This document shows, piece after piece, positions 15,398 to 35,055 of a stretch of DNA of 43,540 nucleotides. The notes below the pieces were generated by a model. It saw nothing but the letters and a program-made list of their open reading frames with translations. It had not been told where the DNA came from and did no database searches. The stretch lies in IMG/VR virus record IMGVR_UViG_3300009433_000003; one strand, written 5' to 3'. The stretch is from a virus. Each line of letters begins with the position of its first letter. Position 1 is the first letter of the stretch. The position numbers were made by a program, and so were the translations under genes.

Positions 15398-15398
15398 C

Positions 15399-21300: not shown

Positions 21301-24300
21301 AACGTGTCTATGAGGACGTTAAGAATTTGAACGTCGTCATCAATGATGATGTCCGCGCAGTCATGGACCGGGTCCTTGCGACCGAGAAAGAGATTGAAGC
21401 GGCCAAGGACAATATGCACTATCGCGCATTGTTTGACGCGGCAGCGGCAGCCGGCATGGATGAGGACCAATATAACAGTTACACCGAGGCGCTCGAGGAA
21501 GCCAATGAGGGCGCAATCCGCCGTATGGAAATGGAAATTCTCCGGGATGTTTCACGGGAAACCAAGCTCTGGTGGCGAGAAGAAAAGAAGAAAGTCGCTG
21601 TCGAAGCTGAAGACGAAATCAATCAACAGAAAGTGCACCAAGTTATTCACTACCTTATGCACGCCAAGAACCTCGTCACAGGCGAGAAAGTCGGCAAAGT
21701 TAAGATGAGCCGCGAGCTTGCTGAGGAAGTGCTCGAGGGCACCGGCTACACCACCAAGGACCTACCGGGCGGCGGCGCGACTGCGCTAGTTCGTAAGGGT
21801 GAAGGCGTCAGGCCTGAGCTGGTGGCCGAGCTCTATGGCTACAGTTCAGCGCAAGAAATGTTGCTCGCTATTATCAAGGCACCGAAACGAAAGGAAGAGA
21901 TCAAAGCGAGAACAAAGCAAATGATGATTGAGCGCCATGGAGACCTATTGAACGACGGCTTCATTGAAGAGAAAGCCATGGAAATTATTCACAGTGATGG
22001 TCAGGCCAAGGTGCTCGAGCTCGAGCTGATGGCATTGTCACGCCGGTCGAAGACGAAGTTCACACCAGCGGCCATTGCTAAAAACATCGCCAGAGAGATT
22101 CTAAGCGGCATGACGGGCCGTGATATCAAGCCCAACACTTATGCCATTGCAGAGCGTAAAGCAGCAAGGGCGGCAGAAAAGGCCTTGATTAAGTCCAACT
22201 ATGACGAGGCAGCTAGACAGAAGCGAATACAGCTAATCAATCACGAGCTTTATCGTGCGGCACTGGAAGCAAAAGAGGACGTCGACAAGGCGCGGAAATA
22301 CTTCAAGAGCTTCGAGAAGGGCAGCAAACGCAAACGTCTGGACCGGGATTATTTGACGCAAATCGACAGGATGCTGGAACGGTTCGAGCTGGGCAAGATA
22401 TCAGGCAAACAAAAGAAACGACGCGAGTCACTGGCGGAATGGATTAAGAGCGAAGAGGAGAAAGGCAATATTGTCGACCTTGATGAGCGCCTGCTTGATG
22501 AGACCTATCGCAACAACATTGAAGACATGCAGCTCGGTGAGATTATGGCATTGAAGGACGCCGTCACTAACATCGAAAAACTCGCCGTGCTCAAGAACAA
22601 ATTGCAGTCACTGAACGACCAGCGTGAGCTCGACGAGATTGTTGAGGATGTCGCCGGGGAGCTGGAGGCAGGGGCTAAGGGCACCGTCAAAGACAACCCA
22701 GAAATGCGACTCCCTCAAGACGAAGCGGGTCGCGCAATTACAGGCTTTTTAATTGGTCACAGAAAACTGTCGAGCATTGTCTTGCAGATGGTCGGCGGCA
22801 AACGGAACTCGACACTCTGGAAGTTATTAGTCAAGACCGCGAACAAGCGGGAAGAGCACGAGAACAACCAGAAGGAAGCGGCAACCATCACTTTAACCAA
22901 GCTGTTCCAAGGCCTGAGCGTCAGTAAAAAGTTATACATGAAGATATGGCGCCCAGAGATTGGTGAGTCACTGACTAAACAAGGCTTGCTGATGATTGCG
23001 CTGAACCAAGGCAATCAAGGCAACAAGACGAAACTGGTAGAAGGGCAGACCGTGAAAGGCTGGTCTCAAGATAAAATCCAGAAGCTACTCGACAACCACA
23101 TGACCAAGGAAGACTGGGAAATGGTTCAAGGGACGCTCGACTTCATTAATAGCTACTGGGAAGAGTCAGCCGCGAAACAGTACCGCCTCACCGGGATACG
23201 CCCGGAGAAGGTTGAGGCCATGCCTATCGTAACGCCATACGGCACCTTTGCTGGCGGATACTTCCCGCTGAAGTATGAGGACCGGGTGAGCGAGAGGGCG
23301 CTGGTCCACACGCAACAAGACATCGCCAAGCAGATGACGCAAGGCATGGTCGGGAAAGCAACCACGAAGCGCGGCCACTTGAAGGGGCGAGTCGATAATG
23401 TCCAGATGCAAATGCGCCTAGACTTTGGCGTCATCTTCGAGCACGTCGGTGAGGTCATACACGATCAGACCTATCACGAATGGCTCGTCGATATTAATAA
23501 ATTAATCAGTCATTCTGGCTTCCGTACCGCTGTCGTCAAGAACCACGGCGTCCAAGCCTACGGCACTATCAAGAACACAATCTCTGATATTGCAGCCGGG
23601 GACGTGCCAGCAGCGAACCATTTTGAGCAAGGCCTTAACTGGATACGAGCAGGCACCTCAATCGGGTACATGGGCTGGAGCGTCTGGACCTCTATGTTGC
23701 AGCCTATGGGCTTGACTCAGTCCATTGTCAGGATTGGACCCAAGTGGGTGGCGAAGGGGATAAGTCGCTGGCTCACCGGCCATGAAGGCATGGAGAGCAC
23801 AACCGAATGGATATTCTCTCAGTCGGACTTTATGCGTCAACGTACCAAGACCATGAACCGGGAAATTAATGAGATTAGAAACAAGCTCCAGAAGAGCGGC
23901 GTAATGACGGACATTGAGGATAGTTATTTCTGGCTTATCGGGAAGACCCAGCTCATCGCTGACATCCCCACATGGCTCGGCGAATACGAGAAGCAAAAAG
24001 AATTACATAACATGTCGGACGAAGACGCGGCGGCTCTAGCAGATCAAGCCGTCATCGACTCGCAAGGGTCAGGCGGACTGAAGGACATGGCGCAACTCCA
24101 GAGGGGTGGACCGCTCCAGAAATTATGGACCGCGTTCTATAGTTATTTCAATGTAACGTATAACCTGACAGCAGAGTCCTACGCGAGAACAGACTTCAAG
24201 AGCGTGCCTTCAGTCGGGCGCCTTGCTGTCGACTTCATGCTGTTGCATACGCTGCCCTCAGCCATGGCCACCATCATGTATCAGATAGTAAAAGGCGACT

Positions 24301-24650
24301 GCGAAGACCCAGAATGTCTGGCCAAGCAACTCGTCGGCGACCATATCGGGTATACGCTGGGCATGGTCCTTGGTCTCCGGGAGCTGGGCGGTATTGCTTC
24401 GGGCTTCGGTTACACAGGCCCGTCGGGTATCAACCTGTTCGGGGAGGTGGCTAAGGCTGTCAAGCAGTGGAAACAAGGCGAGGTCGATGAGTCTTGGTTG
24501 AAGAGCACTAATAAGGTCGCTGGCATCTTATTGCATTACCCGGCTTCACAGATTGAGCGGACTATCAGAGGCATGTATCACATGGCTAATGGCAACACTA
24601 CCAACCCGATGGCACCACTTGTTGGACCTGCTTACAAAGACACTAGATAG
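15399..24650 (+). CDS. Giant internal virion / ejection protein (gp16 position), polyvalent multi-enzyme protein, 3083 aa
   Basis: Single uninterrupted ORF of 9252 nt. Contains Gly-rich hydrophobic segments, an RSH synthetase-like domain, a ParB-like domain, an ART-like domain, an HExxH domain, a long helical region and a hydrophobic C-terminal third. Confidence 0.85.
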   Translation: MLNFDEAFEEEYRAYTQGPSNTPEPQQDLKPLRKATQEDANKIAADMFGQKGKDDAAFNQMAETSLSMDPEQEASAYNISNEIGVPVETVRGDLGIYQQLVAKQKALTDFSAIKENTGLSNLYTQDGQLAAMSVDDAYEQDQLWGWVTSVTETVFDATANEMRLKNEVGDVMDDTGGLLLRKYMFDNLSEEDNTELATLLEATDRANKIFADRSDIDESIALNGAEIWGQFTSSLPVMLGGAAVGAGTGYAMGAASGPGGAITAGTGALVGSSLASGAHAAVMEAGHAVHEFAGIKDLDGNFMDQDVALGAGMMVGLINGTIEAAGFGVLAKFSGAKKVLGYFSRGAIRKELIQNATLRKALKNAGKAWALGIAEQTVEEVLQESVNMLTGEMAKMYASGDFKTMTKDEAYERLGAIMYKTATGSVMLSGGTATPQFLVDVHAANKAESTKSYFQGLAEKVTTTKLHERAPKKLETLVNAAADKGPKDTVYVDALKLVETLANKDESGQTLNQDKAIAAIEEEFPSLKGKVGPALASNTPLRIPMGEYAANIAPTELHKALIDDIKFDETGMTFSEATDWRANGEKEFTKEMEKANKKAVGKREKAAPAEKVFDEVVAKLIDSGQTKEVAGTNAATWKAFFNTMAHLTGGDAYELYSAFDIDVDNAAGGGDFQSLLSSALERRPADETIVEGSGNSSPTASKSEGSAQDALPGMKSTIPAPPSTHSPTDSSNVSIFSPPSSVATSLPSTLPSSNEGGSVSLISGEFFINPSIQKSSENNKAVWQLTDELITNMGLAEQGMKGFENDLKAFASLIDGVELYGVRVKDEAGLLTKKLSRGSTWETINDYLGGRLVISNEAAMAEAMRRLEESGVEILEKDNFLHKSKKGYRAVHYTIRLPNGLAAELQLVPTEISNIQDEMHKIHDKWKAVSETLLTDEQKADRETDRDFMQGEFDREYQNYQQKQVVLSQSNNKAISDADLATGEGFFITEGLDVVSVAVNSLRTVKDAPERVDRAEKGMLGALNGGQGRKPISVMQEDDGTYTVLSGRSTASALKRLGVKNIPVRIQTMEEVELEEAAGKIGKMQMIEAGMSGEAFDASHIDEYIVGKWVATGKAHKNPDGSYILTETGLKMVEKELNEPTISSIDKLKAGAELFEPGINLEFAPDPRNETLTAKFKALSPEERLEATKAIADAVIPEIMKEMGIDNYNIETTEGGFEDDVNPSLILRAPELAFDELIELANVAGFVGSQQATIVYDESDHSGTQTGFIKIKPLVEMDENERAELYQHLHEVIPQVEGYTYRDGAIVIGNFSGWSDNPIDDDTMYLVIAEALEAYDTEHHFDLQEPVTFRSEYLETNLEDTRYGYGEQSESGRETSVRGQGRRNAKGIKAIKREASQLLESRLNGGKTNQEVNNEKWQKGTTALLKSRDTKLQVTTAAPDVFSVIDSGVKSLALTNGVLKEIQRKHPDVPAEVIANLRELVTDPEFVYRRTIPGKEDEVNIVIKGRTAKGETIVVGVHPATGMIKTVTPRHDQKGPGSGRAHLAKEIGNALKGEKKMYIENKAALSELEAAQSRPIASVAGGPKRLSAKVVTKSKLVNNLGRELEQSGFNNWFGDSKIVDDNGEPLVAYHSTKRDITEFKPAYDDGMMFFTTNAKFAGDWIRGSGGLRDMSDVGKAEALAMRSLEQELYPVHMKDAEEYDWKTPEGVAEFDKDRDNFKKAVREKTGFDSASEFEAVGESQIMPVYLKVEKLFDPRKDFKVVEELLLSFPEENGMGKLVEQGAHKQGSWIIYERPEVTELLQGLGYDGILLAENIGGPHETIAVWDNTLIKSASGNNGNFDGSGNILNQTLNDDMGGDTRGNITLPDDIRDGTTIIRMFEGQDLSTFQHESAHFFLEVMRSLAMDPMATPEMIKQWTAVSMMLDMDPEGTTTVEQHETFARTFEAYLFEGKAPNMELRKVFNSFLFWLKRVYEDVKNLNVVINDDVRAVMDRVLATEKEIEAAKDNMHYRALFDAAAAAGMDEDQYNSYTEALEEANEGAIRRMEMEILRDVSRETKLWWREEKKKVAVEAEDEINQQKVHQVIHYLMHAKNLVTGEKVGKVKMSRELAEEVLEGTGYTTKDLPGGGATALVRKGEGVRPELVAELYGYSSAQEMLLAIIKAPKRKEEIKARTKQMMIERHGDLLNDGFIEEKAMEIIHSDGQAKVLELELMALSRRSKTKFTPAAIAKNIAREILSGMTGRDIKPNTYAIAERKAARAAEKALIKSNYDEAARQKRIQLINHELYRAALEAKEDVDKARKYFKSFEKGSKRKRLDRDYLTQIDRMLERFELGKISGKQKKRRESLAEWIKSEEEKGNIVDLDERLLDETYRNNIEDMQLGEIMALKDAVTNIEKLAVLKNKLQSLNDQRELDEIVEDVAGELEAGAKGTVKDNPEMRLPQDEAGRAITGFLIGHRKLSSIVLQMVGGKRNSTLWKLLVKTANKREEHENNQKEAATITLTKLFQGLSVSKKLYMKIWRPEIGESLTKQGLLMIALNQGNQGNKTKLVEGQTVKGWSQDKIQKLLDNHMTKEDWEMVQGTLDFINSYWEESAAKQYRLTGIRPEKVEAMPIVTPYGTFAGGYFPLKYEDRVSERALVHTQQDIAKQMTQGMVGKATTKRGHLKGRVDNVQMQMRLDFGVIFEHVGEVIHDQTYHEWLVDINKLISHSGFRTAVVKNHGVQAYGTIKNTISDIAAGDVPAANHFEQGLNWIRAGTSIGYMGWSVWTSMLQPMGLTQSIVRIGPKWVAKGISRWLTGHEGMESTTEWIFSQSDFMRQRTKTMNREINEIRNKLQKSGVMTDIEDSYFWLIGKTQLIADIPTWLGEYEKQKELHNMSDEDAAALADQAVIDSQGSGGLKDMAQLQRGGPLQKLWTAFYSYFNVTYNLTAESYARTDFKSVPSVGRLAVDFMLLHTLPSAMATIMYQIVKGDCEDPECLAKQLVGDHIGYTLGMVLGLRELGGIASGFGYTGPSGINLFGEVAKAVKQWKQGEVDESWLKSTNKVAGILLHYPASQIERTIRGMYHMANGNTTNPMAPLVGPAYKDTR
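17832..18182 (+). other. Domain: RelA/SpoT-type nucleotide pyrophosphokinase (small alarmone synthetase / toxSAS-like), aa 812-928
   Basis: Aligned by eye to the B. subtilis RelQ motifs. VRVKDEAGLLTKKLSRG matches RVKSPESIIEKIKRKG. DYLGGRLVI matches DIAGVRVVC. KKGYRAVHYTI matches DSGYRSYHLIV. AELQLVPT...HKIHDKWK matches VEIQIRT...EHKLRYK. Confidence 0.8.
18411..18623 (+). other. Domain: ParB/Srx-like nuclease/NTPase fold, aa ~1005-1075
   Basis: RKPISVMQEDDGTYTVLSGRSTASALKRLGVKNIPV matches the ParB N-terminal pattern (PI.V....G.y.vl.G..R..A...lG...ipv). Confidence 0.6.
19752..19991 (+). other. Domain (tentative): PBECR-like (phage Barnase-EndoU-ColicinE5/D-RelE) nuclease, aa ~1452-1531
   Basis: LKEIQRKHPDVPAEVIANLRELVTDPEFVY...VNIVIKGRTAKGETIVVGVHPATGMIKTVTP resembles the K-H..d....i..l.e.i.dPd.v...vvv....i.T layout of these domains. 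Weak. Confidence 0.3.
20220..20894 (+). other. Domain: ADP-ribosyltransferase-like (ART-PolyVal type), aa ~1608-1832
   Basis: FNNWFGDSKIVDDNGEPLVAYHSTKRDITEF, then MMFFTTNAKFAGDW, then PVYLKVEKLFDP, then GYDGILLAENIGGPHETIAVWDNTLIKSA. This is the typical H / S-T / E layout of the phage polyvalent-protein ART family. Confidence 0.6.
21006..21278 (+). other. Domain: zincin-like metallopeptidase (HExxH), aa ~1870-1960
   Basis: FQHESAHFFLEV (HESAH at nt 21060-21074) followed by EQHETFARTFEAYLFEG as a possible third ligand region. Confidence 0.55.
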
Positions 24651-24678
24651 GAGCGGCGAAGTCGCTGAAACGACGGCC
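24651..24678 (+). promoter_or_regulatory. Conserved intergenic element, copy 2 (AGCGGCGAAGTCGCYGA..CGGCCA)
   Basis: Shares AGCGGCGAAGTCGC and a downstream CGGCCA with 3588-3611. Starts 1 nt after the giant-gene stop. Confidence 0.5.
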
Positions 24679-24711
24679 ATAATGCAACTTTTAAAATGAG
24701 GTTGCATTATG
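24679..24711 (+). promoter_or_regulatory. Perfect 10-bp hairpin covering the tail-fibre translation start
   Basis: ATAATGCAAC (24679-24688) and GTTGCATTAT (24701-24710) are exact reverse complements. The loop holds the SD-like TGAGG, and the 3-prime arm includes the A and T of ATG 24709. Confidence 0.6.
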
Positions 24712-26775
24712 ACTGTCGCCAGCAGCACCAACAAAACTGACCCGTTTTCGGGTAATGACGTCGCAACCGCGTTTGCGTTTACTTTCAAGTGCGATGACGC
24801 TGCCTCTTTAAGAGTAGTCTTGACTAGCACGCTATCCGTCGAGTCGACGCTTGTGCTCGACACCGACTACACGCTTGCACTGAACACGAACCAAAAGGCC
24901 AGCCCGGGCGGGAGCGTCACCTATCCTATATCAGGGACGCCACTGGCTACCGGCGAGAAGCTCACAATAATTCGGGACTTGGTCCCACAAACACAAGCGA
25001 CCGCCTTACCGAATCAGGGCGCATGGCAGCCCGAGGTCGTTGAACAGGCGCTCGACAAAGTCACTCAGCTGGTCCAGCAAGTGTCAGAAGCAGGCGGCCG
25101 AAGCATTAAGCTCCCGGTGAGCTCGACATTAACTGGCTTAGAAATACCAGAGCCTGAAGCTGGGAAAACATTATTCTGGAACGAAGACGCCACGGCGCTC
25201 AGCAATGGCGCGACCGGCTTAGACATCGCAGCCGCTAACAGTTACGCCATCGCAGCGGCAGCCTCAGCAGTCGCAGCCCTTGCTAGCGAAACCGCAGCGG
25301 GGAGCTCGGAGACAGCGGCGCAAACAGCACAGACAAGCGCCGAAACAGCGGAGACAAACGCCGAGACCGCACAGACAGCAGCGGAATTGGCCCTCGACAC
25401 ATTTACTGATTTATATCTGGGCGCGAAAGCAAGCGACCCAACACTAGACAACGACGGGGCCGCGCTCCAAGACGGCGCCCTGTATTTCAATACAACCGAC
25501 AACGAGACGAAAGTCTATGACCTTGGAGGCACAGCATGGCAGTCGGTAAGCGCGGCAATAACAGCGGCCCTAGCGGCGCAATCCGCAGCTGAGACGGCAG
25601 AGACTAATGCAGAAACAGCGGAGACAAACGCTGCCGCGAGCGCTGTCGCAGCTGCCGCCAGCGAAACTGCCGCCGGAATAAGCGAAACAAATGCAGGGAC
25701 AAGCGAGACGAACGCCGGGACGAGCGAGACCAATGCAGGGACAAGCGAGACGAACGCCGGGACGAGCGAGACCAATGCGGCGGCAAGTGCAGCAATAGCA
25801 ACGCTAGGAGCTGGTATTGACCTTACGTTTAATAGCTTAACAACCGACGTCGATAAGGCCGCTGGTGACGTTTGGCTGAACCACGCTACCCCGGCAAGCG
25901 CAACAGTATTGTATGTAGACAATGTTGATAATAATGCAGCAAGTATCACAAGTTTACTTGACTCGCTGGATGACCCTACCACCTCAATATCCGCGCACAT
26001 AAGAATCACAAAAGCTAGTAACCCGGCTGTCTTCGCTATTTACAACGTGACTGGTTTAGTGACTGACGGTACTGGCTACCGGAAGATTGCAGTTACTTAT
26101 GTGACTGGAGCTGGCTCATTTTTAGATAACGACAAAATCGCTTTCAACTATTCCCTGTCAGGGGATGATGGTGCAGCTGGTGCAACTGGTGCAACTGGCG
26201 CAGCTGGCGCTGGCTCTGGGGATATGCTTGTGGCAAATAATCTATCTGATGTTGCTGCTGCAGCCACAGCATTTGCAAATATTAAGCAAGCAGCAACGTC
26301 AAGCGCAACAGGCGTGTCTGAATTAGCCATTGCTAGTGAAGTAAATACAGGCACAGACGCAGCCAGAACAATAACCCCAGACGCATTAGCAGGCTCAATC
26401 CATGGCGTTAAAAAGTTAGGCGGCACCTTGGCTGAACGTGCGACTGCTGCCAGTGTTGCTACATTTTTAGACATCCCTGTTACTTCTGATATGGAGGGAA
26501 TGGAACTGTTTGACTGGATGGGCAATGTTGTGACAGCGGGGACCACAGGTACGCAGACACTAGACATCCTGAAAAACGGGGTAACAATGTTTGCCACCAA
26601 GCCTACTATCGATTCTGCTGAGACAACAACATTTACAGCGGCTGCTGCCGGGGTACTGAAGACTGACGGGACCGAGGATGTGACTGAAGGGGATATAATT
26701 TCTTTTGGCATCACGGCCTTGCATACAACCCCAGCCTTAGGTAGCGGGTTAGTTGGCTTATTCAGGAAACCATAA
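24709..26775 (+). CDS. Tail fibre protein
   Basis: 688 aa. N-terminal adaptor-like domain. A/E/T-rich coiled-coil repeats (AETAETNAETA, 5x G[I/T]SETNA). Short GxxGxx tract (GAAGATGATGAAGAG). Motif NNLSDV...ATSSATGVSELAIASEVNTGTDAARTITPDAL is typical of fibres. Confidence 0.8.
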   Translation: MTVASSTNKTDPFSGNDVATAFAFTFKCDDAASLRVVLTSTLSVESTLVLDTDYTLALNTNQKASPGGSVTYPISGTPLATGEKLTIIRDLVPQTQATALPNQGAWQPEVVEQALDKVTQLVQQVSEAGGRSIKLPVSSTLTGLEIPEPEAGKTLFWNEDATALSNGATGLDIAAANSYAIAAAASAVAALASETAAGSSETAAQTAQTSAETAETNAETAQTAAELALDTFTDLYLGAKASDPTLDNDGAALQDGALYFNTTDNETKVYDLGGTAWQSVSAAITAALAAQSAAETAETNAETAETNAAASAVAAAASETAAGISETNAGTSETNAGTSETNAGTSETNAGTSETNAAASAAIATLGAGIDLTFNSLTTDVDKAAGDVWLNHATPASATVLYVDNVDNNAASITSLLDSLDDPTTSISAHIRITKASNPAVFAIYNVTGLVTDGTGYRKIAVTYVTGAGSFLDNDKIAFNYSLSGDDGAAGATGATGAAGAGSGDMLVANNLSDVAAAATAFANIKQAATSSATGVSELAIASEVNTGTDAARTITPDALAGSIHGVKKLGGTLAERATAASVATFLDIPVTSDMEGMELFDWMGNVVTAGTTGTQTLDILKNGVTMFATKPTIDSAETTTFTAAAAGVLKTDGTEDVTEGDIISFGITALHTTPALGSGLVGLFRKP
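25675..25779 (+). repeat. Tandem 21-bp (heptad) repeat x5, including a 2 x 42-bp near-perfect duplication
   Basis: GGGACAAGCGAGACGAACGCCGGGACGAGCGAGACCAATGCA at 25696-25737 is repeated at 25738-25779 with 1 mismatch. A degenerate unit lies at 25675-25695. Confidence 0.85.
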
Positions 26776-27161
26776 TGGACCTATATATTCAATTCAGGCA
26801 CACAAGACCTGAGAACAGTACAGCGGATATAGGGGAGGTTACTCTTGTATACGAGACTTCTGAAATCGTAGAGCCACCTTCACCTACTAGTCACTTAGCT
26901 TTGGTAAAAATCACTGGGCTTCCTGCTTCGCAAAGTAAAGCAAAGTTGTACGAGCTGTTAGCCTCAGAGATTCAAGGTGAAGAAGATGTAGATGGGTATG
27001 ATGCCAGACGATGTGCTGTCTTTGATTTTGCATCATTACCTTCCCCATTTTTAAATGACTTCAATGTAAATAAAGAAGTGGATATTCCGTTTGGCATTGC
27101 TGTGTCATTACTACACAACAGAAAACTAAACCGTGGCATAACTCAGGGGGACTTTGACTAA
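26775..27161 (+). CDS. Hypothetical protein (tail-associated by position)
   Basis: 128-aa ORF. ATAATG overlap with the fibre stop. Visibly AT-richer than the upstream genes. Confidence 0.5.
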   Translation: MDLYIQFRHTRPENSTADIGEVTLVYETSEIVEPPSPTSHLALVKITGLPASQSKAKLYELLASEIQGEEDVDGYDARRCAVFDFASLPSPFLNDFNVNKEVDIPFGIAVSLLHNRKLNRGITQGDFD

Positions 27162-28174
27162 TGGCTGAAGTAGTACGCTACGTTAATACAGCATCCACTG
27201 CTGGAGGTGATGGGACTACTAATAACACTACTGGTGCTACAAGGGCATACGCCTCTAGTGCTGAGTGGAATACTGCGGAAATAACTAACCTAGTTTTAGA
27301 TACAGATAACCATGTCCTTAAGTGCTGTGGCACAGCTGCGGATACTGCTCAGCTTAATATGTCAGGATGGACTATGAGTGCTGTTTATAATTTCTTAATG
27401 GAAGGCAATCCTGATGAAGCTGATGGATGGAATAAAACCGGACTCTACAGTACAAGCCATTATCGAATAGAGACAGTTGATGCCTCTAACATTAAAGCTG
27501 CCAAAGACTCCTTTTCGACATTTAGAAACTTACAGGGGGCAACCTCAGGGACAGGGAATAATAATCCGAACGTATATCTTAAAAATACAGTGGATGTTCT
27601 CGAAGGATGTATCTTGCGTCAAGGGTGTACAGGCACTAAAGGAAAGGGAGTTATCGGTGATTATGCGCCTTTTGCAGGAAGTATAAGTAATAATATTATA
27701 TACTCTACCGACCCTTTACCTGAGCTTGATTCTTATGGGATATCTTTCAAAGGTGAGGTTAGTAGCACAGGCAGGATTTATAACAATACTGTATACGGAT
27801 TCCGCGAGGGAATTTACGCTCCTCTAGCTACTCAGGTAGGTAAGTGTAACAACAACACAGTCTTTGGCTGCACGGATGACTTTGATATGCATGCCAATTG
27901 GACGCTTGATTATAATGCTTCTGATGATGGTGATGGAACTAATGCACAAACATTATCGGGAACAAGGGCAGATGATTTTGTTGACGTAACAACTTATGAC
28001 TTTCACCCAGTAGAATCTGGTGTGTTACCTAGCAACGGCTTGGGCAGTGCCACCGATTCTAATGTACCTCTAGCAGATATTAAAGACGTTACACGTAGTA
28101 CGTCTGCACCATCAATAGGCGCTATTGAATATGGGGCAGTATCTTCATTCGTTCCAAAGATGGGAATTTATTAA
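27161..28174 (+). CDS. Putative second receptor-binding protein / tailspike with right-handed beta-helix-like repeats
   Basis: 337 aa. The N-terminus VRYVNTASTAGGDGTTNNTTGATRAYAS is typical of parallel beta-helix (pectate-lyase-fold) proteins. Contains N/G/T-rich repeats. Confidence 0.5.
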   Translation: MAEVVRYVNTASTAGGDGTTNNTTGATRAYASSAEWNTAEITNLVLDTDNHVLKCCGTAADTAQLNMSGWTMSAVYNFLMEGNPDEADGWNKTGLYSTSHYRIETVDASNIKAAKDSFSTFRNLQGATSGTGNNNPNVYLKNTVDVLEGCILRQGCTGTKGKGVIGDYAPFAGSISNNIIYSTDPLPELDSYGISFKGEVSSTGRIYNNTVYGFREGIYAPLATQVGKCNNNTVFGCTDDFDMHANWTLDYNASDDGDGTNAQTLSGTRADDFVDVTTYDFHPVESGVLPSNGLGSATDSNVPLADIKDVTRSTSAPSIGAIEYGAVSSFVPKMGIY

Positions 28175-28293
28175 TAGCGTCCCTGTGTGCCATCTTATGG
28201 ATGGTGCGCGGGGGCTTGTGGATGAAGACCAGTGCAGAAGACACATAGAGCATGACGAAGGTAAACAAGACTTACTAGCTTAAAGGATTATTA

Positions 28294-28584
28294 ATGCCAG
28301 ATTCAGATAGAAGAGACACCGACACGCTTATACTTTTAAAGCTGCATAACCTTGATGAAAAGTTTGATGCGAAGTTTGATGCGTTGAGCCAGAAGTTTAC
28401 TGACCATCTTATAGAAGACAAAGAATTGCATCTTCGAACCGATCACTTGATCCATGGTAACGGTAGCGTCGGCATGAAGGCCACCCTCGAGGTGGTCAAG
28501 AGCAGAGTCACTCTAATAAATGCTATTCTATTCGGGGCTTGGGGTGCGATTATTGGGGCCTATTTAAAACTCAGAGGCGTTTAG
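28294..28584 (+). CDS. Membrane protein upstream of endolysin (possible holin/antiholin)
   Basis: 96 aa. Single C-terminal TM segment (VTLINAILFGAWGAIIGAYL). Lies immediately before the endolysin gene. Confidence 0.4.
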   Translation: MPDSDRRDTDTLILLKLHNLDEKFDAKFDALSQKFTDHLIEDKELHLRTDHLIHGNGSVGMKATLEVVKSRVTLINAILFGAWGAIIGAYLKLRGV

Positions 28585-28992
28585 ATGCTACGCGCTAACA
28601 CTGAGCTCAAGGAACGCGGTATTGACGGCTATGGCTCCGGGTGCTTTGGCGCCAGCCGGGACGGCGGCCAAAGACTCCATAACGGAATAGATTATGAGTG
28701 CGCTGCCGGCAGCTTTATTTTTCCCGTCGAGCCCGGGCGGGTCACTAAGCTCGGCTATCCGTATGGCGACGATTTAACCTTCCGATACGTCGAGGTGACT
28801 GACGTCACTGGATATCACTGGCGCTATTTCTATGTGGACCCGGCCGTCGTGCTCGGGGACTACATCACCGAGAGCACAATGCTTGGAAGGCTTCAGGCGC
28901 TCGAGGGCAGGTATCCGGGAATCACTCCTCATTGTCATCTTGAGGTTAAAGACGGCGAGGGCAACTATATTGATCCGAGGGCGATTGTCTAG
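28585..28992 (+). CDS. Endolysin, M23 (LytM-type) metallo-endopeptidase
   Basis: 135 aa. HxxxD motif (HNGID) and HxH motif (HCH in PHCHLEV). Located in the lysis cassette. Confidence 0.8.
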   Translation: MLRANTELKERGIDGYGSGCFGASRDGGQRLHNGIDYECAAGSFIFPVEPGRVTKLGYPYGDDLTFRYVEVTDVTGYHWRYFYVDPAVVLGDYITESTMLGRLQALEGRYPGITPHCHLEVKDGEGNYIDPRAIV

Positions 28993-28996
28993 TCTC

Positions 28997-29209
28997 ATGG
29001 ACTGGATACTCACAGTGTTCATTGTTTTACCAAGCGGCCATTATGTTCAGCGGCCAGTCGCAACAGCAGAGCCTCAGCGTTCGCTCGTTGAATGCAATAA
29101 ACTCAGACTACAGTCAGACTATCGAGAAATTCCACTCGCCTACAATCAGCTGACAGGCGGCGAGGCGAGACTTGTGTGCGTCGGCAAGCCGGGGCGACAA
29201 AGTGCTTGA
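28997..29209 (+). CDS. Small protein with N-terminal hydrophobic segment
   Basis: 70 aa from the internal ATG of track ORF 28832..29209. Begins MDWILTVFIVLPSG. Confidence 0.35.
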   Translation: MDWILTVFIVLPSGHYVQRPVATAEPQRSLVECNKLRLQSDYREIPLAYNQLTGGEARLVCVGKPGRQSA

Positions 29210-29210
29210 T

Positions 29211-29414
29211 ATGATTTATATGTTTTTCAATGAGCACAAGGGGGTCAGGCGGCTCGGGCTCCTCGTCTGGTTCGCGCTGACCGCGTGGGCCACCTATCGA
29301 ATTTTTAGCAACATGACGGAAGTGTCGCCAGCTGTCGCCAGCTGTTATGCCACGCTCGTCGGCGCGGCCGCTGCATACGGCTGGCAATACATTACTCATA
29401 GGAGAGGAGAGTGA
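29211..29414 (+). CDS. Holin-like protein (two TM segments)
   Basis: 67 aa from ATG 29211. TM segments LGLLVWFALTAWATYRIF and AVASCYATLVGAAAAYGW. Charged C-terminus. Confidence 0.45.
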   Translation: MIYMFFNEHKGVRRLGLLVWFALTAWATYRIFSNMTEVSPAVASCYATLVGAAAAYGWQYITHRRGE

Positions 29415-29779
29415 CTAATATTTTAGGCATATCAATACTCGTCGGACTGTTGTCGAGCTTCGGAATGTACAAACAGATTCAAGCCAACGGCGAGATTAAG
29501 AATGAGCTCGAGACCAAGGACAAGATTATCGCTTCCCAGATATTGGAGAGGGCGAAGCTGGAGGAGACCTTGCTCGAGAACTCGAACAAGAAGAGGGTCA
29601 TCTATCGTGACAAAGAGAAAATCAAATATTTAATCAAGGAGGTTCAGACCAATGCGAGCCCTGAAGACTGTATTAATCAGCCTGTACCTGTTGAGCTTAA
29701 CTGCCTGTTTCGAGTCGATGGCTGTCAAGGAGTGCCCGGTGGTCCCGGTTCAGCTGACTCAGCCGACCCCGGTCCCTAA
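29411..29779 (+). CDS. i-spanin (Rz-like)
   Basis: 122 aa. N-terminal TM segment (ILGISILVGLLSSFGM), a charged coiled-coil region, and an embedded o-spanin gene. Confidence 0.7.
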   Translation: MTNILGISILVGLLSSFGMYKQIQANGEIKNELETKDKIIASQILERAKLEETLLENSNKKRVIYRDKEKIKYLIKEVQTNASPEDCINQPVPVELNCLFRVDGCQGVPGGPGSADSADPGP

Positions 29780-29900
29780 GTACACCGGCGAAACTTGGGC
29801 GGACGTGGCCGACTTTACTGTCGAGCTCGACGCCGCCCTCAAGGAATGCAATGCAGACAAGTCCTCTATTCTGGACTGGTCCAAACCATCACTTGACTAG
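29652..29900 (+). CDS. o-spanin (Rz1-like outer-membrane lipoprotein), overlapped architecture
   Basis: 82 aa. Signal peptide with lipobox LTAC. Pro-rich. Starts inside the i-spanin gene in another frame and extends beyond it. Confidence 0.75.
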   Translation: MRALKTVLISLYLLSLTACFESMAVKECPVVPVQLTQPTPVPKYTGETWADVADFTVELDAALKECNADKSSILDWSKPSLD

Positions 29901-30089
29901 CTTCTCGCAAGCGTATTGTATCGAGTAAGGTATCGGTCGGTCGCCTGCCAGATACTGGCGAAGAGTCCTGTCACCTATGCCCAGCCTTTCGGATATGGCT
30001 CGCTGCGATAGCGGTGGGTCGAGCGACTCAATAAGTTCTCTTAGATAGCCCGGGTCTGGGTTGTGATGCTTCTCTGCATTCGGCTTCAT
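29889..30089 (-). CDS. Small HTH DNA-binding protein
   Basis: 66 aa. LSQRAISERLGIGDRTLRQYLAG is a helix-turn-helix pattern. Last gene of the leftward accessory operon. Its 3-prime end overlaps the o-spanin end by 12 nt. Confidence 0.5.
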   Translation of the reverse strand: MKPNAEKHHNPDPGYLRELIESLDPPLSQRAISERLGIGDRTLRQYLAGDRPIPYSIQYACEKLVK

Positions 30090-30382
30090 TTTAATAGTCT
30101 CGCTAGTTGGTTGTGGAATTTTTGGGGGACCTTGGTCTTTTTGGCGTCACGCAAGTCCAAGAAGTATTCAGGGAGCTTGCGGTTTTCAACGTATGCCCAC
30201 GCTCTCGTGCTGTAGCCATCAAGGTAGTAAGCGTCGCAGACCAGCACTAAGCTCTCGCCCTCTCCGACGGGGAGCCGAGGCTCATCCATGTGGTCATGGT
30301 CGATGATGTCGCCGACATAATACTCGTCGGTCTCCTCGGTGGCGATGGTCTCAATGTCCCACTTGTATACATATTCAGCCAT
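30086..30382 (-). CDS. Hypothetical acidic protein
   Basis: 98 aa from the internal ATG (MAEYVYKWDIE...) with SD AAAGGAGAA. The track ORF extends further upstream with an implausible N-terminus. Confidence 0.5.
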   Translation of the reverse strand: MAEYVYKWDIETIATEETDEYYVGDIIDHDHMDEPRLPVGEGESLVLVCDAYYLDGYSTRAWAYVENRKLPEYFLDLRDAKKTKVPQKFHNQLARLLK

Positions 30383-30405
30383 ATTATATTCTCCTTTTTG
30401 ATGCT

Positions 30406-30687
30406 TCACTTCAGCGCCGCCTTTGGTTCGCTCATGATCCACCGGGCCACGTCCTTCTCGATTCTCGTGTCGCCTGCCGGGACCTCGAAGACTTTGTTCT
30501 CGTGTGGGACCTCGTGACTCGGCTCGCCATCGAATACATATAGGACACAAGTGTCCTTGATGCTGTCGACCTGACTTTCTCGCCAGTCTTGCTGGACACA
30601 ATACTTAGTTCGTCGGCCCTTTGCTTTATAGAGGACCCTGCAATTACCATTATCCACGGCGATTATTTTAAGCTCGACCTTGCTCAT
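30406..30687 (-). CDS. Hypothetical protein
   Basis: 93 aa from ATG 30687 (MSKVELKII...), which overlaps the upstream stop (ATGA). Confidence 0.5.
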   Translation of the reverse strand: MSKVELKIIAVDNGNCRVLYKAKGRRTKYCVQQDWRESQVDSIKDTCVLYVFDGEPSHEVPHENKVFEVPAGDTRIEKDVARWIMSEPKAALK

Positions 30688-30890
30688 TTCAACAGCTTCC
30701 AAGTGATGTCGACCACTTTCAGGATGGGCATGGCGATGAACTTTTCTTGATTGGCTGCACTGAGCTTGTCATAGACTCCGACGACCGCGCTGGCCGTGAA
30801 GCTGTCGACAGTGTGGCCATCGATTTTCTTGTACCCGTTCTCGAGCACGTCTCTGAAGTTCTCTATGCCTTTTATTCCTAGTGCTTTCAT
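30684..30890 (-). CDS. Hypothetical protein
   Basis: 68-aa ORF. Tightly coupled to the HD-hydrolase gene: its start codon shares 1 nt (30890) with the HD-hydrolase stop. Confidence 0.5.
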   Translation of the reverse strand: MKALGIKGIENFRDVLENGYKKIDGHTVDSFTASAVVGVYDKLSAANQEKFIAMPILKVVDITWKLLK

Positions 30891-31360
30891 TACGCGTCTC
30901 CTTTCTTGATTAGGGCCACGACTGCGACGTTCAACTGTATCAGCGCGTCTGCATACTTCTTGACCTTCTTGGTGGGTATCTCGTTGCCATTGTTTAAGTG
31001 GTCATACAAGTCGCCCAGCTTGACGGTCATGGCCAGCTTGTTATTGCCGGCAATCAGTCTCGCCATATAGGCTGTGTAATTGTCGCCATCATGCTTGGTC
31101 AGGAACTTAACCGCTTCGATGACAGGCTCAGGAACACCGGCAGCCTTGAGGCTTGTGGCGTCGTGCTCGGTGTCCTCGATAATATCGTGGAGGAAGCCGG
31201 TGAGGTAGACATCCTCGTTATCAAGGTCGAATGGGTTGACGTATGCAGCAAGCAGGGCCACTGCCTTCAGATGTCTTTCATACGGGTCACCGGCCTTGTC
31301 GACCTGACCTTTGTGAGCTTCAAGTGCAAGGTTCCTGATGATTTTATAGGTAGTGGTCAT
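30890..31360 (-). CDS. SpoT/RelA-type HD-domain pyrophosphohydrolase (small alarmone hydrolase, SAH)
   Basis: 156 aa from ATG 31360 (SD AAGGAGG). EAHKGQVDKAGDPYERHLKAV, then FLHDIIEDT, then VKLGDLYDHLN match the (p)ppGpp 3-prime-pyrophosphohydrolase HD domain motifs. Confidence 0.8.
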   Translation of the reverse strand: MTTTYKIIRNLALEAHKGQVDKAGDPYERHLKAVALLAAYVNPFDLDNEDVYLTGFLHDIIEDTEHDATSLKAAGVPEPVIEAVKFLTKHDGDNYTAYMARLIAGNNKLAMTVKLGDLYDHLNNGNEIPTKKVKKYADALIQLNVAVVALIKKGDA

Positions 31361-31385
31361 ATTTGACCTCCTTTGTGAATTGAGT

Positions 31386-31416
31386 GGGAAATATAGCACG
31401 GCTCGTTGAGCCGTGC
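31386..31416 (-). promoter_or_regulatory. Palindrome + TATA-like box element, copy A (upstream of the SAH gene)
   Basis: On the minus strand it reads GCACGGCTCAACGAGCCGTGC-TATATT-TCCCACT. It lies 26 nt upstream of ATG 31360. Confidence 0.5.
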
Positions 31417-31422
31417 AAGAGG

Positions 31423-31770
31423 TTAGTTATCTTTGTCGGTTTTGTAGCCGAGGCCCTCGAAGAGGTTGACGAGATAACCGCTGACAGCTTCGTCCTTCGC
31501 GCCTATTGAGACAGTGTTCACAGCGTTCCACCAGTAGTCATATAAGTTCGCCACGCCGAATGGAGTCTGCAAGTAATACTCGAAGGTGACTTTTTCCTCT
31601 GGGTCGTTGGTGCTGTAGTTCGGTTCACCGAAGAGCTCAGCCAACTCGTCACGGCTGATGATGACGCTGCCCTGACGGCAAGCGCCTGCGAGGTCAAGTT
31701 CGCCCTCAGTGATTTTGTAGCAGGCTGATGGGATAATGGTCAGTGCTGGGTTGCTGTTTAATGTGGTCAT
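31423..31770 (-). CDS. Hypothetical protein
   Basis: 115-aa ORF with SD GGAGG. No recognisable motif. Confidence 0.5.
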   Translation of the reverse strand: MTTLNSNPALTIIPSACYKITEGELDLAGACRQGSVIISRDELAELFGEPNYSTNDPEEKVTFEYYLQTPFGVANLYDYWWNAVNTVSIGAKDEAVSGYLVNLFEGLGYKTDKDN

Positions 31771-31792
31771 AAGGACCTCCGTAAGTTTATTT

Positions 31793-31814
31793 AAAAGGCC
31801 ACCGGGGTGGTGGC
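31793..31814 (-). terminator. Putative rho-independent terminator inside the accessory operon
   Basis: Minus strand reads GCCACC-ACCCC-GGTGGC followed by CTTTTAAAT. It lies directly after the stop of 31825..32085. Confidence 0.5.
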
Positions 31815-31824
31815 GTTGGCTGAG

Positions 31825-32085
31825 TTATATCACGCTGACGCGGCCCTTGAAGTCGTCGCCGAAGATTTCCAGCGGGACGTAGGCTTCGCCATCAACAGTG
31901 AATACTTTTTCCGCTGTGTGGTTAGTGCTGTCAACCAGCTTGAAGAAGGTGGCGCCGTTAAGAGTCTTGACTTCGGCGACGGTGCCCTCGAGCCAGCGTT
32001 CAGGGCGTCCCGGGCATGGTTTGAAGTGGTAAGCCTTGATTCTGTCGCCGACCTTTGCGAGGCCTTCATATTTTAATGTGCTCAT
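31825..32085 (-). CDS. Hypothetical protein
   Basis: 86-aa ORF. The plus-strand shadow ORFs here are less protein-like. Confidence 0.5.
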   Translation of the reverse strand: MSTLKYEGLAKVGDRIKAYHFKPCPGRPERWLEGTVAEVKTLNGATFFKLVDSTNHTAEKVFTVDGEAYVPLEIFGDDFKGRVSVI

Positions 32086-32244
32086 TTACACAGCCTCCAG
32101 TTCTTTTAAGTAGGTCAATGCGAGTTTGGTATAGAGGGTTTTGAGCTTGCTGGCCGCTCTGATTTTTCCTTTGGCCTCGGCTTCTTTCCATGCAATGTAG
32201 AGATTGTTTGCTTTGGTTTCGTACTTGTCGAATGGGTTGTTCAT
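32086..32244 (-). CDS. Small hypothetical protein (52 aa)
   Basis: Hand-translated: MNNPFDKYETKANNLYIAWKEAEAKGKIRAASKLKTLYTKLALTYLKELEAV. SD AAGGAGG. Its stop abuts the next start. Confidence 0.4.
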   Translation of the reverse strand: MNNPFDKYETKANNLYIAWKEAEAKGKIRAASKLKTLYTKLALTYLKELEAV

Positions 32245-32270
32245 GGTGCCTCCTTATTTGTGGCAGTAGT

Positions 32271-32302
32271 GGGAACAGGAACTACATTAGGCTCATTGAG
32301 CC
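32271..32302 (-). promoter_or_regulatory. Palindrome + TATA-like box element, copy B
   Basis: Minus strand reads GGCTCAATGAGCC-TAATGT-...TTCCCACT, upstream of ATG 32244. Confidence 0.45.
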
Positions 32303-32308
32303 GAGGAG

Positions 32309-32773
32309 TCAAGCGCTTTCGCTGTTTATTTTTTTAACCAGTTCGAACACAGCCTCGCCATTGCTGAAGACACCTATCTTGTTGATGGCTGATGATGGGT
32401 ATGAGTCATTAATTAATTTAACGATGTTGTCGGCGACTTTGTTTGCCCAGCCTTTTGCGATGTTTGCCATGCCAGACTCTTCCGAGTAGTAGCGATCGAA
32501 CTCATTGGTCACGAGCGCGACGCTGACGCAACCGCAATACTCGGAGACAACGACCTTCGCGAAGTTATTCTCAAGGAGGACTTTGCCTTCGCCTATCCAT
32601 TCGCCGTCAACACGCTCGAATGATTTATAGTTATTTTTAATGATGTTCTCGAGGTTGTCCTTGAACCATTCCCAGTTGTCGTTGTTTTCGTCATAGTCAT
32701 CGGTGAATCCAGCTGGGTCGTTTAGGTAAGCTACTGCGACCGCGTTGCTTGGCACGTTTACTGATCTACTCAT
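32309..32773 (-). CDS. Hypothetical acidic protein
   Basis: 154-aa ORF. D/E/N-rich N-terminal half (FTDDYDENNDNWEWF). Confidence 0.55.
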   Translation of the reverse strand: MSRSVNVPSNAVAVAYLNDPAGFTDDYDENNDNWEWFKDNLENIIKNNYKSFERVDGEWIGEGKVLLENNFAKVVVSEYCGCVSVALVTNEFDRYYSEESGMANIAKGWANKVADNIVKLINDSYPSSAINKIGVFSNGEAVFELVKKINSESA

Positions 32774-32925
32774 ATCTCATATCCCTCATAGTAATTAATT
32801 TCAGCATTCTCGTGGGCCTTCGCCATAATCTCCCAGCTAATGACCTCCTCGTGATATTCGTTAGCCTCTTCAAGTGTATCGAAGACGAGGCCCTCGTTGT
32901 AATACTTTAATGATTCGCGGTCCAT
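32770..32925 (-). CDS. Small hypothetical acidic protein (51 aa)
   Basis: Hand-translated: MDRESLKYYNEGLVFDTLEEANEYHEEVISWEIMAKAHENAEINYYEGYEI. SD GGAGAA. ATGA overlap with the next gene. Confidence 0.4.
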   Translation of the reverse strand: MDRESLKYYNEGLVFDTLEEANEYHEEVISWEIMAKAHENAEINYYEGYEI

Positions 32926-32927
32926 TA

Positions 32928-33083
32928 TTAATATTCTCCTCGAGCTGTTGCTTTTGCGCCCTCAATGCAGTCAGAGAGGTATTCTCTCCATGATTGGTAT
33001 TCATAACCACAGGCTTTGCTCTCTGATTTATGCCATTCGTATTCTTTGTAATATTCGTCATAGGCTTTTTTGTTTAGCTGCAT
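32928..33083 (-). CDS. Small hypothetical protein (51 aa)
   Basis: Hand-translated: MQLNKKAYDEYYKEYEWHKSESKACGYEYQSWREYLSDCIEGAKATARGEY. It fits head-to-tail packing better than track ORF 32870..33061. Confidence 0.4.
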   Translation of the reverse strand: MQLNKKAYDEYYKEYEWHKSESKACGYEYQSWREYLSDCIEGAKATARGEY

Positions 33084-33243: not shown

Positions 33244-33279
33244 GTCGGAAGAACAATTCGAATATAGGCTCATTGAGCC
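33244..33279 (-). promoter_or_regulatory. Palindrome + TATA-like box element, copy C
   Basis: Minus strand reads GGCTCAATGAGCC-TATATT-...TTCCGACT, upstream of ATG 33217. Confidence 0.45.
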
Positions 33280-33362
33280 AGCACGTCAACAACTTTCGTA
33301 ATTTATTTTCAGGTCCTTCTTTTCTTGCTGAAGGGCTCGAGGTCTTGGGCTGGAGTTTTATT

Positions 33363-33602: not shown

Positions 33603-34652
33603 TCAGTCGGGTTGCTCTATTTTGGAGCGAGAGAACGGGGTCACGACCTTGCCTTTGCGACGGTAATGAGCCCGGGTGACGGCCGGTGTTGAGTGGTCAA
33701 GTTTATCGGTGGCCTCGGCCTCGGTCGCGTCGCTTGCTGCCTTGGCTCTGATGTCTGACTCAGTGAAGCGCTCGACGAGCTCGGTGTCCTCGAGTGCCTT
33801 GTCCATGCTCCGACGCCACACAGAATCAAAGCCACTGGCCTTCCGTTTTTCATCGAGGTAACACTTGCCGGCCCGGGTTGCGAACAGATACATCGACCCG
33901 ACTTTTCTCTTGATGGCGCGGACGTCGGCCACGGCTTCCCGGAGTTCGTCGTCCCATGTGAACATGATTTTCTTGCCGGTTTTATTCTGGACCACGAGGA
34001 GGCCCTCAGCTTTGATATCAGACAACTGGATGGTGAGCATGTCGCCCTTCCTAATGCCGAGCTTGAGCTTGAGCGTGACGTAGGTTTTTATCATCGGGTT
34101 AGCGACCTCAAGGAACTCAGCAAGCTCCCAGTCCTCAACGTATCGCGTGCGTGCCTTAGCGCCGAATTTCAGGACCTTGCCCTTGATTGGATGAAAGTCT
34201 ATGTATCCCCACTCAATCGCCTTGGTATACGCATGAGATAGGACGACGACGTGCTGATTGGCTAGGCTCTCGCTGCGACGGCCGACCTTGTCGCGCATCT
34301 TGTAGACATCCATGGGGCGAAGCGCACTGATATCCATTTCACCGAAGCCCTTGCGAAGCGCTGCGATAATTTTGATCTCAGTGTCGAAGGTGTTCGGGGA
34401 CTTTGTTGGGGAGACTTCTTTGATGTAACGGTCGAGCAGCTCGGCGATTGTCTTGGCGTCTTCATAGATATCTGCACGCTCGGCCCATGTCTTATATGCC
34501 TCGGGTAAGGTGCGGCCAAGGCGGAACTCTTTCTTGTTGTCCCAGTGCTGTCGAAGAGCCGGGGGAACTCGGTAAAAATATAGGCCACGACGGAAACGCC
34601 AGTTCGTTGGGAGGCCTTTGTTTTCAGGTGTTCGCGGCTTTGGCGGCGTCAT
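33603..34652 (-). CDS. int: Tyrosine integrase
   Basis: 349 aa. Arm-binding-type N-terminus. Catalytic-region motifs GIRKGDML and LDHSTPAVTRAHY (H-x-x-R...Y). Adjacent to attP. Confidence 0.9.
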   Translation of the reverse strand: MTPPKPRTPENKGLPTNWRFRRGLYFYRVPPALRQHWDNKKEFRLGRTLPEAYKTWAERADIYEDAKTIAELLDRYIKEVSPTKSPNTFDTEIKIIAALRKGFGEMDISALRPMDVYKMRDKVGRRSESLANQHVVVLSHAYTKAIEWGYIDFHPIKGKVLKFGAKARTRYVEDWELAEFLEVANPMIKTYVTLKLKLGIRKGDMLTIQLSDIKAEGLLVVQNKTGKKIMFTWDDELREAVADVRAIKRKVGSMYLFATRAGKCYLDEKRKASGFDSVWRRSMDKALEDTELVERFTESDIRAKAASDATEAEATDKLDHSTPAVTRAHYRRKGKVVTPFSRSKIEQPD

Positions 34653-35023: not shown

Positions 35024-35055
35024 AATAAAAGACCCCGGGGTTGTCGCCCCGGGGC
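35024..35055 (-). terminator. Rho-independent terminator between ssb and the xis-int module
   Basis: Minus strand reads GCCCCGGGG-CGACAA-CCCCGGGGTC followed by TTTTATT. Confidence 0.65.

Follow-up and report, generated by a model that had tools for sequence, protein, structure and literature searches.

We analysed a stretch of 43,540 nucleotides, the viral record IMGVR_UViG_3300009433_000003 of IMG/VR (hereafter the window), with respect to a gene for a small alarmone hydrolase (SAH) on its minus strand at positions 30890-31360. The product of this gene is an Aph1-like protein of 156 amino acids with an HD domain. The same phage encodes a giant virion protein into which a synthetase domain of the RelA/SpoT homologue (RSH) type is inserted. 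The SAH gene itself is real, and a partnership of the hydrolase with the RSH domain is plausible from the sequence, although unproven.

The open reading frame (ORF) of the SAH runs from the ATG at 31360 to the stop codon TAA at 30892-30890. It is preceded by a Shine-Dalgarno sequence, AAAGGAGG, which was read directly on the minus strand at 31374-31367 and whose AGGAGG core is separated from the ATG by a gap of 6 nt. A longer version of 169 amino acids with a GTG start is unlikely, because this start would fall within the hairpin upstream of the gene. A first-pass annotation of this DNA had described the product as a stand-alone HD hydrolase of the SpoT type without a synthetase domain. The protein indeed consists of a single domain with all catalytic residues kept, and the Pfam scan returned HD domains alone (HD, PF01966, 3.3e-7, and HD_4 below the threshold) and no synthetase domain. 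Moreover, it matched PHROG 990, annotated as metal-dependent phosphohydrolase, at 6e-33, and among the NCBIfam models for SpoT/RelA it aligned solely with the N-terminal hydrolase part. The catalytic residues H16, H30, H58-D59, E62-D63, K114 and D117 are invariant or nearly so across 65-114 aligned homologues. Two of the three HD motifs proposed in the annotation were found exactly, H.GQ.DK.G.PY..H as HKGQVDKAGDPYERH (residues 16-30) and LHD..EDT as LHDIIEDT (residues 57-64). The third had been misread as KL.D...N. The protein has KLGDLYDH at this place, i.e. KL.D...H, and a histidine at the final position is a common variant of the family, since it was present in 46 of 114 aligned homologues.

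The assignment as an alarmone hydrolase held, whereas the label SpoT-type did not, as the nearest relative by both sequence and fold is Aph1, a (p)ppApp hydrolase. In a phmmer search of the PDB the top match was Aph1 of Bacteroides caccae (7SMG, 8e-12, 48.6 bits), followed by RelH (7qoc, 1.2e-6). Matches other than Aph1 reached at most 31.9 bits, with the hydrolase domains of Rel weaker than RelH and Mesh1 also well behind Aph1. BLASTP against Aph1 of Streptococcus pneumoniae showed 35% identity over residues 11-144 (E = 4e-21), so that the closeness to Aph1 extends into the C-terminal part by which the family is defined. The AlphaFold model, built on an alignment of 65 sequences, had an all-helical HD fold with a mean pLDDT of 95.9. 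Foldseek ranked the four chains of 7SMG first for this model (E = 1e-7, TM-score 0.77/0.85, 30% identity), and T. thermophilus Rel, Mesh1, RelH and PaSAH followed with E values of at least 5.7e-5. Every one of the 24 PDB fold matches at E <= 1e-3 was an alarmone hydrolase. Sequence comparison and the predicted structure together make the assignment as an Aph1-like small alarmone hydrolase a firm one.

Ahmad et al. (2023) described D24, R96, D116, R119, K133 and Y134 as the signature of the Aph1 family (PMC10083569). Four of these six residues are found in the SAH as D21, R101, K135 and Y136, and its D21-K22-A23 corresponds to D24-K25-A26 of Aph1. Because D21 is retained, the enzyme is probably adenine-preferring, a specificity predicted from this residue. 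Most likely it is a metal-dependent 3'-pyrophosphohydrolase of the Aph1 branch that would turn (p)ppApp into ATP/ADP and possibly also (p)ppGpp into GTP/GDP. The family of the SAH is large, with 9,347 representatives at E <= 1e-3. Among about 15 billion proteins no relative of 50%-99% identity was found, and the identical protein occurred on 22 metagenomic contigs of the same phage of ~43 kb. The gene bears no sign of a recent acquisition: the GC content of the surrounding island (0.51-0.53) is the same as in the remainder of the phage.

The giant virion protein and its RSH domain

The gene of the giant protein (3083 amino acids) is located on the plus strand at 15399-24650. The scaffold phrog_9880 matches both ends of the protein, with an insertion of about 1150 amino acids of cargo in between, and the protein is homologous to Bbp10 of BPP-1 and gp32 of Carin1. 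Pfam recognised LPD22, RelA_SpoT, a weak ParB_N and ART-PolyVal. Because LPD22 and several effector domains are combined in one giant protein, it can be regarded as a polyvalent protein in the sense of Iyer et al. (PMC5512222). Its gene lies between those of a lysozyme-domain protein and of a tail fibre, and this position fits an internal ejection protein that would be packaged and injected.

The core of the RSH synthetase domain spans 17865-18131 on the plus strand (residues 823-911). In the whole protein RelA_SpoT scored 24.9 bits, below the Pfam cut-off of 27, and the segment scored alone reached 28.4 bits. Together with its intact motifs this bears out the earlier claim that the giant protein carries an RSH domain. 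The conserved patterns R-x-K, D-x-x-G-x-R, G-Y-R-x-x-H and E-x-Q are present as R-V-K, D-Y-L-G-G-R, G-Y-R-A-V-H and E-L-Q with the spacing of the Rel/Apk type. A weak local match of 24.5 bits across Syn3-Syn4 was found to the (p)ppApp-synthetase domain of MuF-Apk2 proteins from two IMG/VR contigs (L017 and L018). AlphaFold run on the single sequence of the RSH segment gave a pLDDT of 37.9, and this model was left out of the fold search. Neither tblastn against phages nor the IMG/VR search returned a match for the segment. A word-indexed protein search with 17676-18428 also retrieved nothing, not even the parent protein of 3083 amino acids; very long proteins may be unreachable via the word index, and this null result says little about other giant proteins.

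The RSH domain is directly preceded by a low-complexity linker rich in Ser, Pro and Thr (17496-17730, residues ~700-778), which may form a flexible or protease-accessible connection between the modules of the cargo. It is followed by the weak ParB_N-like match (18486-18626, residues ~1030-1076, E = 0.05). Polyvalent proteins typically contain ParB-like nuclease/NTPase modules. Orthologous giant proteins of 80 IMG/VR relatives range from 1328 to 3869 amino acids and have common N- and C-terminal scaffolds with swapped cargo in the middle; examples are encoded at 16901-25465, 14485-23445 and 22242-31619 of the loci L033, L035 and L036, respectively. The cargo comprises RSH, ParB-like and ART modules in the window, a PBECR5 nuclease in Carin1, and ART only in Octadecabacter phage BD1 and Limnohabitans phage DC33.

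The first-pass annotation had called for a survey of related phages for the joint presence of hydrolase and synthetase. Relatives were gathered via the conserved C-terminal 1233 amino acids of the giant protein, with up to 10 kb on each side of the match. An alignment of five giant-protein C-termini was too divergent to seed the locus search, whereas an alignment of two sequences worked. This resulted in 164 BPP-1-like relatives (4 cultured phages, 80 IMG/VR loci and 80 metagenome loci), in which the cargo region was covered in 120, the position of the island in 74 and both in 57. The survey ran in the predicted direction. A profile hidden Markov model (HMM) of the SAH detected no SAH in these 164 loci, and no RSH cargo was found in them by phmmer with the RSH domain of the window, the Apk2 toxin domain and a RelP fragment or by motif searches. 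One SAH-like fragment in locus L093 (E = 0.14) proved to lie out of frame within the end of the giant gene and was rejected. SAH and RSH cargo are private to this phage among the sampled relatives, which is suggestive, as two traits coinciding in one genome are what a functional link predicts.

A different form of RSH gene was observed in the BPP-1-like prophage L159, located on a bacterial contig of 564 kb (JAESGR010000040.1). It encodes a RelA_SpoT protein of 447 amino acids (14480-15823, minus strand of the locus; Pfam 7e-20) and lies just beyond the giant virion gene on the opposite strand. RSH synthetases thus recur in the BPP-1-like phage group in a form other than the cargo domain described here.

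Control elements and genes of the accessory island

The first-pass annotation had placed the SAH gene behind a terminator and directly after a palindrome with TATATT, and had proposed a promoter-like element of its own. Terminator, palindrome and TATATT were recovered on the minus strand. A hairpin resembling an intrinsic terminator (31814-31798; -11.2 kcal/mol, z = -3.3) with trailing CUUUUAAAU lies between ORF86 and ORF115. The palindrome (31416-31396) forms a 9-bp stem (-15.7 kcal/mol, z = -6.1) that starts 6 nt past the stop codon of ORF115; UAUAUUUCCC follows, and TATATT occupies 31395-31390. With TTGCAC and a 17-nt spacer that holds the palindrome, this TATATT constitutes the first promoter/operator-like element (31390-31418). 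A consensus scan of 31418-31390 classified the stretch as terminator-like without a sigma-70 site, and TTGCAC/17 nt/TATATT agreed with the consensus at 8 of 12 positions.

The core palindrome of this element, GGCTCAACGAGCC, recurs without mismatch at two other places in the island. Three perfect copies of a 13-nt core, GGCTCAAYGAGCC, are present in the window (31400-31412, 32290-32302 and 33267-33279), and all of them are located within the island on the minus strand. Each palindrome occupies the 17-nt spacer of a sigma-70-like pair composed of a TTGAC-like and a TA-rich hexamer. The second element (32284-32312, minus strand) consists of TTGACT, 17 nt and TAATGT. The third (33261-33289, minus strand), downstream of int at the island's head, consists of TTGACG, 17 nt and TATATT and agrees with the consensus at 10 of 12 positions. 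The copies at 32290-32302 and 33267-33279 belong to a 45-nt repeat. The palindrome resembles a single operator shared by three promoters of the island, which would support a separate and regulated transcription of the SAH operon, and the SAH is probably under a control element of its own. A mere terminator is the less likely reading of the palindrome, as its core recurs exactly in two further promoter-like elements. The hairpin at 31416-31396 may additionally attenuate read-through from ORF115.

The operon downstream of the first element comprises SAH, ORF68, ORF93, ORF97 and ORF66. The start of ORF68 (30684-30890, minus strand) overlaps the stop codon of the SAH gene as TAATG, and this overlap suggests that both are translationally coupled. 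ORF68 is an ORFan; a search of 5.8 billion proteins returned nothing but ORF68 itself. The operon ends with ORF66 (29889-30089, minus strand), which encodes a protein resembling helix-turn-helix (HTH) regulators (phrog_3865, 3e-13) and would be a candidate regulator of the island palindromes. Searches of Pfam, PHROGs, NCBIfam and PADLOC gave no significant match for the upstream neighbour ORF115 (31423-31770, minus strand), and it had no homologue in the fetched loci. Similarly, the genes of the island (29889-33083, minus strand) besides SAH and ORF66 lack a recognisable family: where scanned, they gave no significant match in these four collections, and none had a homologue among the roughly 190 phage loci fetched. 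For the three smallest ORFs (51-52 amino acids) the comparison was with these loci only. None of the island genes significantly matched a defence system in PADLOC. Near-identity DNA searches with the island and the structural half against 50,697 phage records were likewise without a match.

The island is bounded by a tyrosine integrase gene (33603-34652, minus strand; phrog_1 9.7e-33, Pfam Phage_integrase), and lysis genes on the plus strand (Peptidase_M23, LysC) adjoin it. The annotation had located the SAH gene in an accessory island between attP and the lysis genes; integrase and lysis genes do flank the island, whereas attP was not located. In view of the integrase the phage is temperate, and it is a marine-type podovirus of the BPP-1 type. 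The best tblastn matches of its structural module, obtained via the giant protein, were Cobetia phage Carin1 and Bordetella phage BPP-1. It also encodes a YqaJ-type exonuclease, SSB and an HTH regulator. A strong hairpin resembling an intrinsic terminator (35032-35055, minus strand), with 8 G-C pairs in its 9-bp stem and followed by CTTTTATT, separates the SSB/recombination genes from the excisionase-like and integrase genes.

Possible roles of the hydrolase

With a probability of roughly 0.4 we propose that the SAH provides immunity against the phage's own RSH domain by degrading its product. The domain would enter the host along with the phage DNA and raise a toxic alarmone there to high levels. 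A promoter of its own within the accessory island, controlled by the operator, would drive the SAH, and the enzyme would remove this alarmone in cells producing the giant protein, once injection has taken place, or in lysogens that are infected by related phages. A more specific version appears quite unlikely. Here, the injected RSH domain would cause an alarmone pulse that shuts the host down at entry, and the operator-controlled SAH would serve as a timed off-switch and protect lysogens against relatives, with no protein-type immunity gene involved. Self-immunity, counter-defence and lysogen protection could apply together, since an enzyme that degrades the product does so regardless of where the molecule comes from. 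We rank self-immunity or an off-switch first, counter-defence second, lysogen protection third and a different substrate last.

Several observations weigh against a partnership of SAH and RSH domain. Only one genome was positive for both traits, and the closest relatives share no more than 30-46% identity. Moreover, the two genes are 12.8 kb apart on opposite strands. The nearest solved relative of the RSH domain is the (p)ppGpp synthetase RelP (1.8e-4). At Syn2-4, Apk enzymes are characterised by RYT, GxN and YH in place of the canonical AVR, SxH and IR (PMC12226406). The RSH domain lacks these Apk signatures; it is of the canonical type at Syn2 and Syn3, and LV at Syn4 corresponds to neither type. 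Its product is not assignable from sequence, and since it is closest to RelP and without Apk signatures, it may not make (p)ppApp and the Aph1-like enzyme may be a mismatch. On the side of the hydrolase, equivalents of D116 (N123 in the SAH) and R119 (N126 or absent) of Aph1 are missing. Both columns are variable among 114 homologues, with D in 36 and R in 55, and without an R119 equivalent the SAH could have a broadened specificity.

Furthermore, IapK was present in every MuF-Apk2 cluster examined by Ahmad et al. (PMC10083569), and no ORF of the window resembled IapK in searches with BLAST, phrog_3514 and a local IapK HMM. BLASTP of ORF68 against IapK of S. pneumoniae and the PHROG search with the island ORFs were negative as well. 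IapK diverges fast, as a known IapK-like protein from locus L018 reached just E = 0.05 against its own PHROG, and a fold-level relative of IapK in the window could escape sequence comparison. The stand-alone RSH gene of prophage L159 is not accompanied by an SAH within 10 kb, and a lysing cell may need no immunity at all. Finally, orphan phage SAHs are common. Among GenBank phage records 236 carry an SAH, 130 of them from Pseudomonas phages, and the one Pseudomonas context examined had no adjacent synthetase. A synthetase was nearby in 2 of 25 SAH-bearing IMG/VR loci, both times MuF-Apk2, and none was found in the context of two moderately similar SAHs (P0003 and P0005).

The frequency of orphan phage SAHs and the rarity of synthetases near them speak at the same time for counter-defence or host takeover independent of the giant protein, an explanation that we consider somewhat unlikely but a serious rival. 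The SAH would degrade host alarmones or reverse the 3'-pyrophosphorylation of tRNA, and would thereby act on abortive infection by host toxic small alarmone synthetases (toxSAS) of the CapRel, FaRel or PhRel type or on the stringent response, so that the infected cell stays productive. In line with this, SAHs of the Salmonella phages PVP-SE1 and SSU5 neutralised all tested toxSAS toxins, and phage SAHs were proposed to bypass alarmone-based defence (PMC7229694). Ahmad et al. also reported Aph1 homologues in very diverse genomic contexts (PMC10083569). However, counter-defence leaves unexplained that the sole SAH coincides with the sole RSH cargo among the 164 relatives, and the Aph1-type signature (D21, K135-Y136) argues against (p)ppGpp as the main substrate.

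An unlikely explanation is lysogenic conversion or exclusion, in which the SAH would be expressed from the prophage and act against incoming (p)ppApp synthetases such as Tas1/Apk1-type toxins delivered by type VI secretion systems of competitors or RSH effectors of superinfecting phages. The island next to int/attP is a typical accessory position of prophages, and it has its own promoter/operator-like elements apart from the main immunity region. Since it acts on the product, immunity of the Aph1 type is effective across systems (PMC12226406). Mesh1 was described to reduce the bactericidal effect of Apk1, with a similar result for PaSAH, in work cited in PMC12691689. Nevertheless, PADLOC revealed no further recognisable defence or conversion gene in the island. 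It is very unlikely that the SAH acts on another phosphorylated metabolite (e.g. NADPH or PAPS, as for Mesh1) or an unknown signalling nucleotide without any link to alarmones: structures of Mesh1 with NADPH and with PAPS did appear in the fold search and PMC9765508 describes an orphan bacterial SAH as metabolically promiscuous, but the Mesh1 matches are weaker than those of Aph1 (E about 1e-4 versus 1e-7, 18-20% versus 30% identity) and all 12 purified Aph1 homologues from 12 sequence clusters hydrolysed ppApp (PMC10083569).

If the SAH is the partner of the RSH domain, the principle of a toxin with product-degrading immunity would extend past MuF-Apk2 cassettes to polyvalent ejection proteins. 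These are large proteins with multiple effectors that are thought to be injected by many phages. The antidote could then be unlinked and separately regulated, and searches of the genome neighbourhood would miss such partners. One phage with one synthetase domain and one hydrolase, next to relatives without either, is also a simple test case for the action of injected RelA/SpoT domains and for the time at which this action is undone. Should the pairing be false, the SAH would be another orphan phage alarmone hydrolase, a common class whose role in infection is not experimentally established.

Comparison with known systems

It had been assumed in the first-pass annotation that a pairing of virion toxin and hydrolase would be a new arrangement. 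In kind this is wrong, as MuF-Apk2 toxins with the immunity genes IapK and Aph1 are known from temperate phages, and the order apk2-iapK-aph1 was described for prophages of B. caccae, Mannheimia and Pasteurella (PMC10083569, PMC12226406). Aph1 partially rescued the toxicity of Apk2, and Aph1 proteins were interchangeable across systems (PMC10083569, PMC12226406). In the S. pneumoniae phage IPP34 we found the order portal, MuF-Apk2 (527 amino acids, Pfam Phage_Mu_F), IapK (69 amino acids) and Aph1. The closest homologue of the SAH in a cultured phage, with 41.7% identity, is encoded by Streptococcus phage Javan146, where portal, a 'capsid and scaffold protein' of 517 amino acids, an ORF of 68 amino acids (phrog_3514, IapK family) and the SAH follow each other. 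The 517-amino-acid protein is positioned like MuF-Apk2 in IPP34, a likeness by position alone.

The SAH resembles Aph1 of B. caccae and of Streptococcus, Mannheimia and Pasteurella prophages in that both are single, all-helical HD domains of about 140-156 amino acids (TM-score 0.77/0.85, 30-35% identity) with the same catalytic residues and with the D-K-A, R96 and K-Y signature positions in common, and in that the temperate phage also encodes an RSH domain on a virion-associated protein. In contrast, it has no counterparts of D116/R119, carries an insertion of 8 residues after helix 2 and has a longer C-terminal helix. Its gene is not located beside a synthetase gene, no IapK/Tis1 gene was detected, and it has its own promoter/operator-like element. 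With the MuF-Apk2 module the phage shares the fusion of an RSH-type pyrophosphokinase to a virion protein and an Aph1-type hydrolase in the same genome. However, the carrier here is a BPP-1-type phrog_9880 protein of 3083 amino acids, whose sole MuF signal is MuF_C at E = 0.05. Instead of being C-terminal as in MuF-Apk2, the RSH domain lies inside the protein (residues 823-911 of 3083), and RYT, GxN and YH are replaced by D-Y-L-G-G-R, G-Y-R-A-V-H and E-L-Q-L-V. Besides, iapK and aph1 lie immediately downstream of apk2, whereas the SAH gene is 12.8 kb off on the other strand.

RelA/SpoT domains in phage polyvalent proteins have been published by Iyer et al., whose passages on RelA/SpoT and alarmones mention no hydrolase partner (PMC5512222). 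The giant protein corresponds to their 2017 description as a large protein with LPD22, ART-PolyVal, a ParB-like segment and RelA/SpoT, for which packaging and delivery along with the DNA are predicted. The published cases are from (pro)phages of Spirochaetes and Epsilonproteobacteria, whereas the domain described here is carried by the scaffold of a BPP-1-like podovirus. The SAHs of FaRel/ATfaRel, PVP-SE1 (PbcSpo) and SSU5 (PaSpo) neutralise RSH toxins by degradation of the product and not by binding (PMC7229694), as would be expected of a partner of the RSH domain, and the phage-encoded PbcSpo and PaSpo are stand-alone genes like the SAH. Unlike FaRel/ATfaRel, there is no bicistronic toxin-antitoxin operon in the window. 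The SAH gene neighbours ORFans with no stand-alone small alarmone synthetase gene adjacent, the candidate toxin is a domain of a structural protein, and the hydrolase is closest to Aph1. What is new here is the trans arrangement, with no recognisable IapK, a different carrier, an internal RSH domain and a separately controlled SAH.

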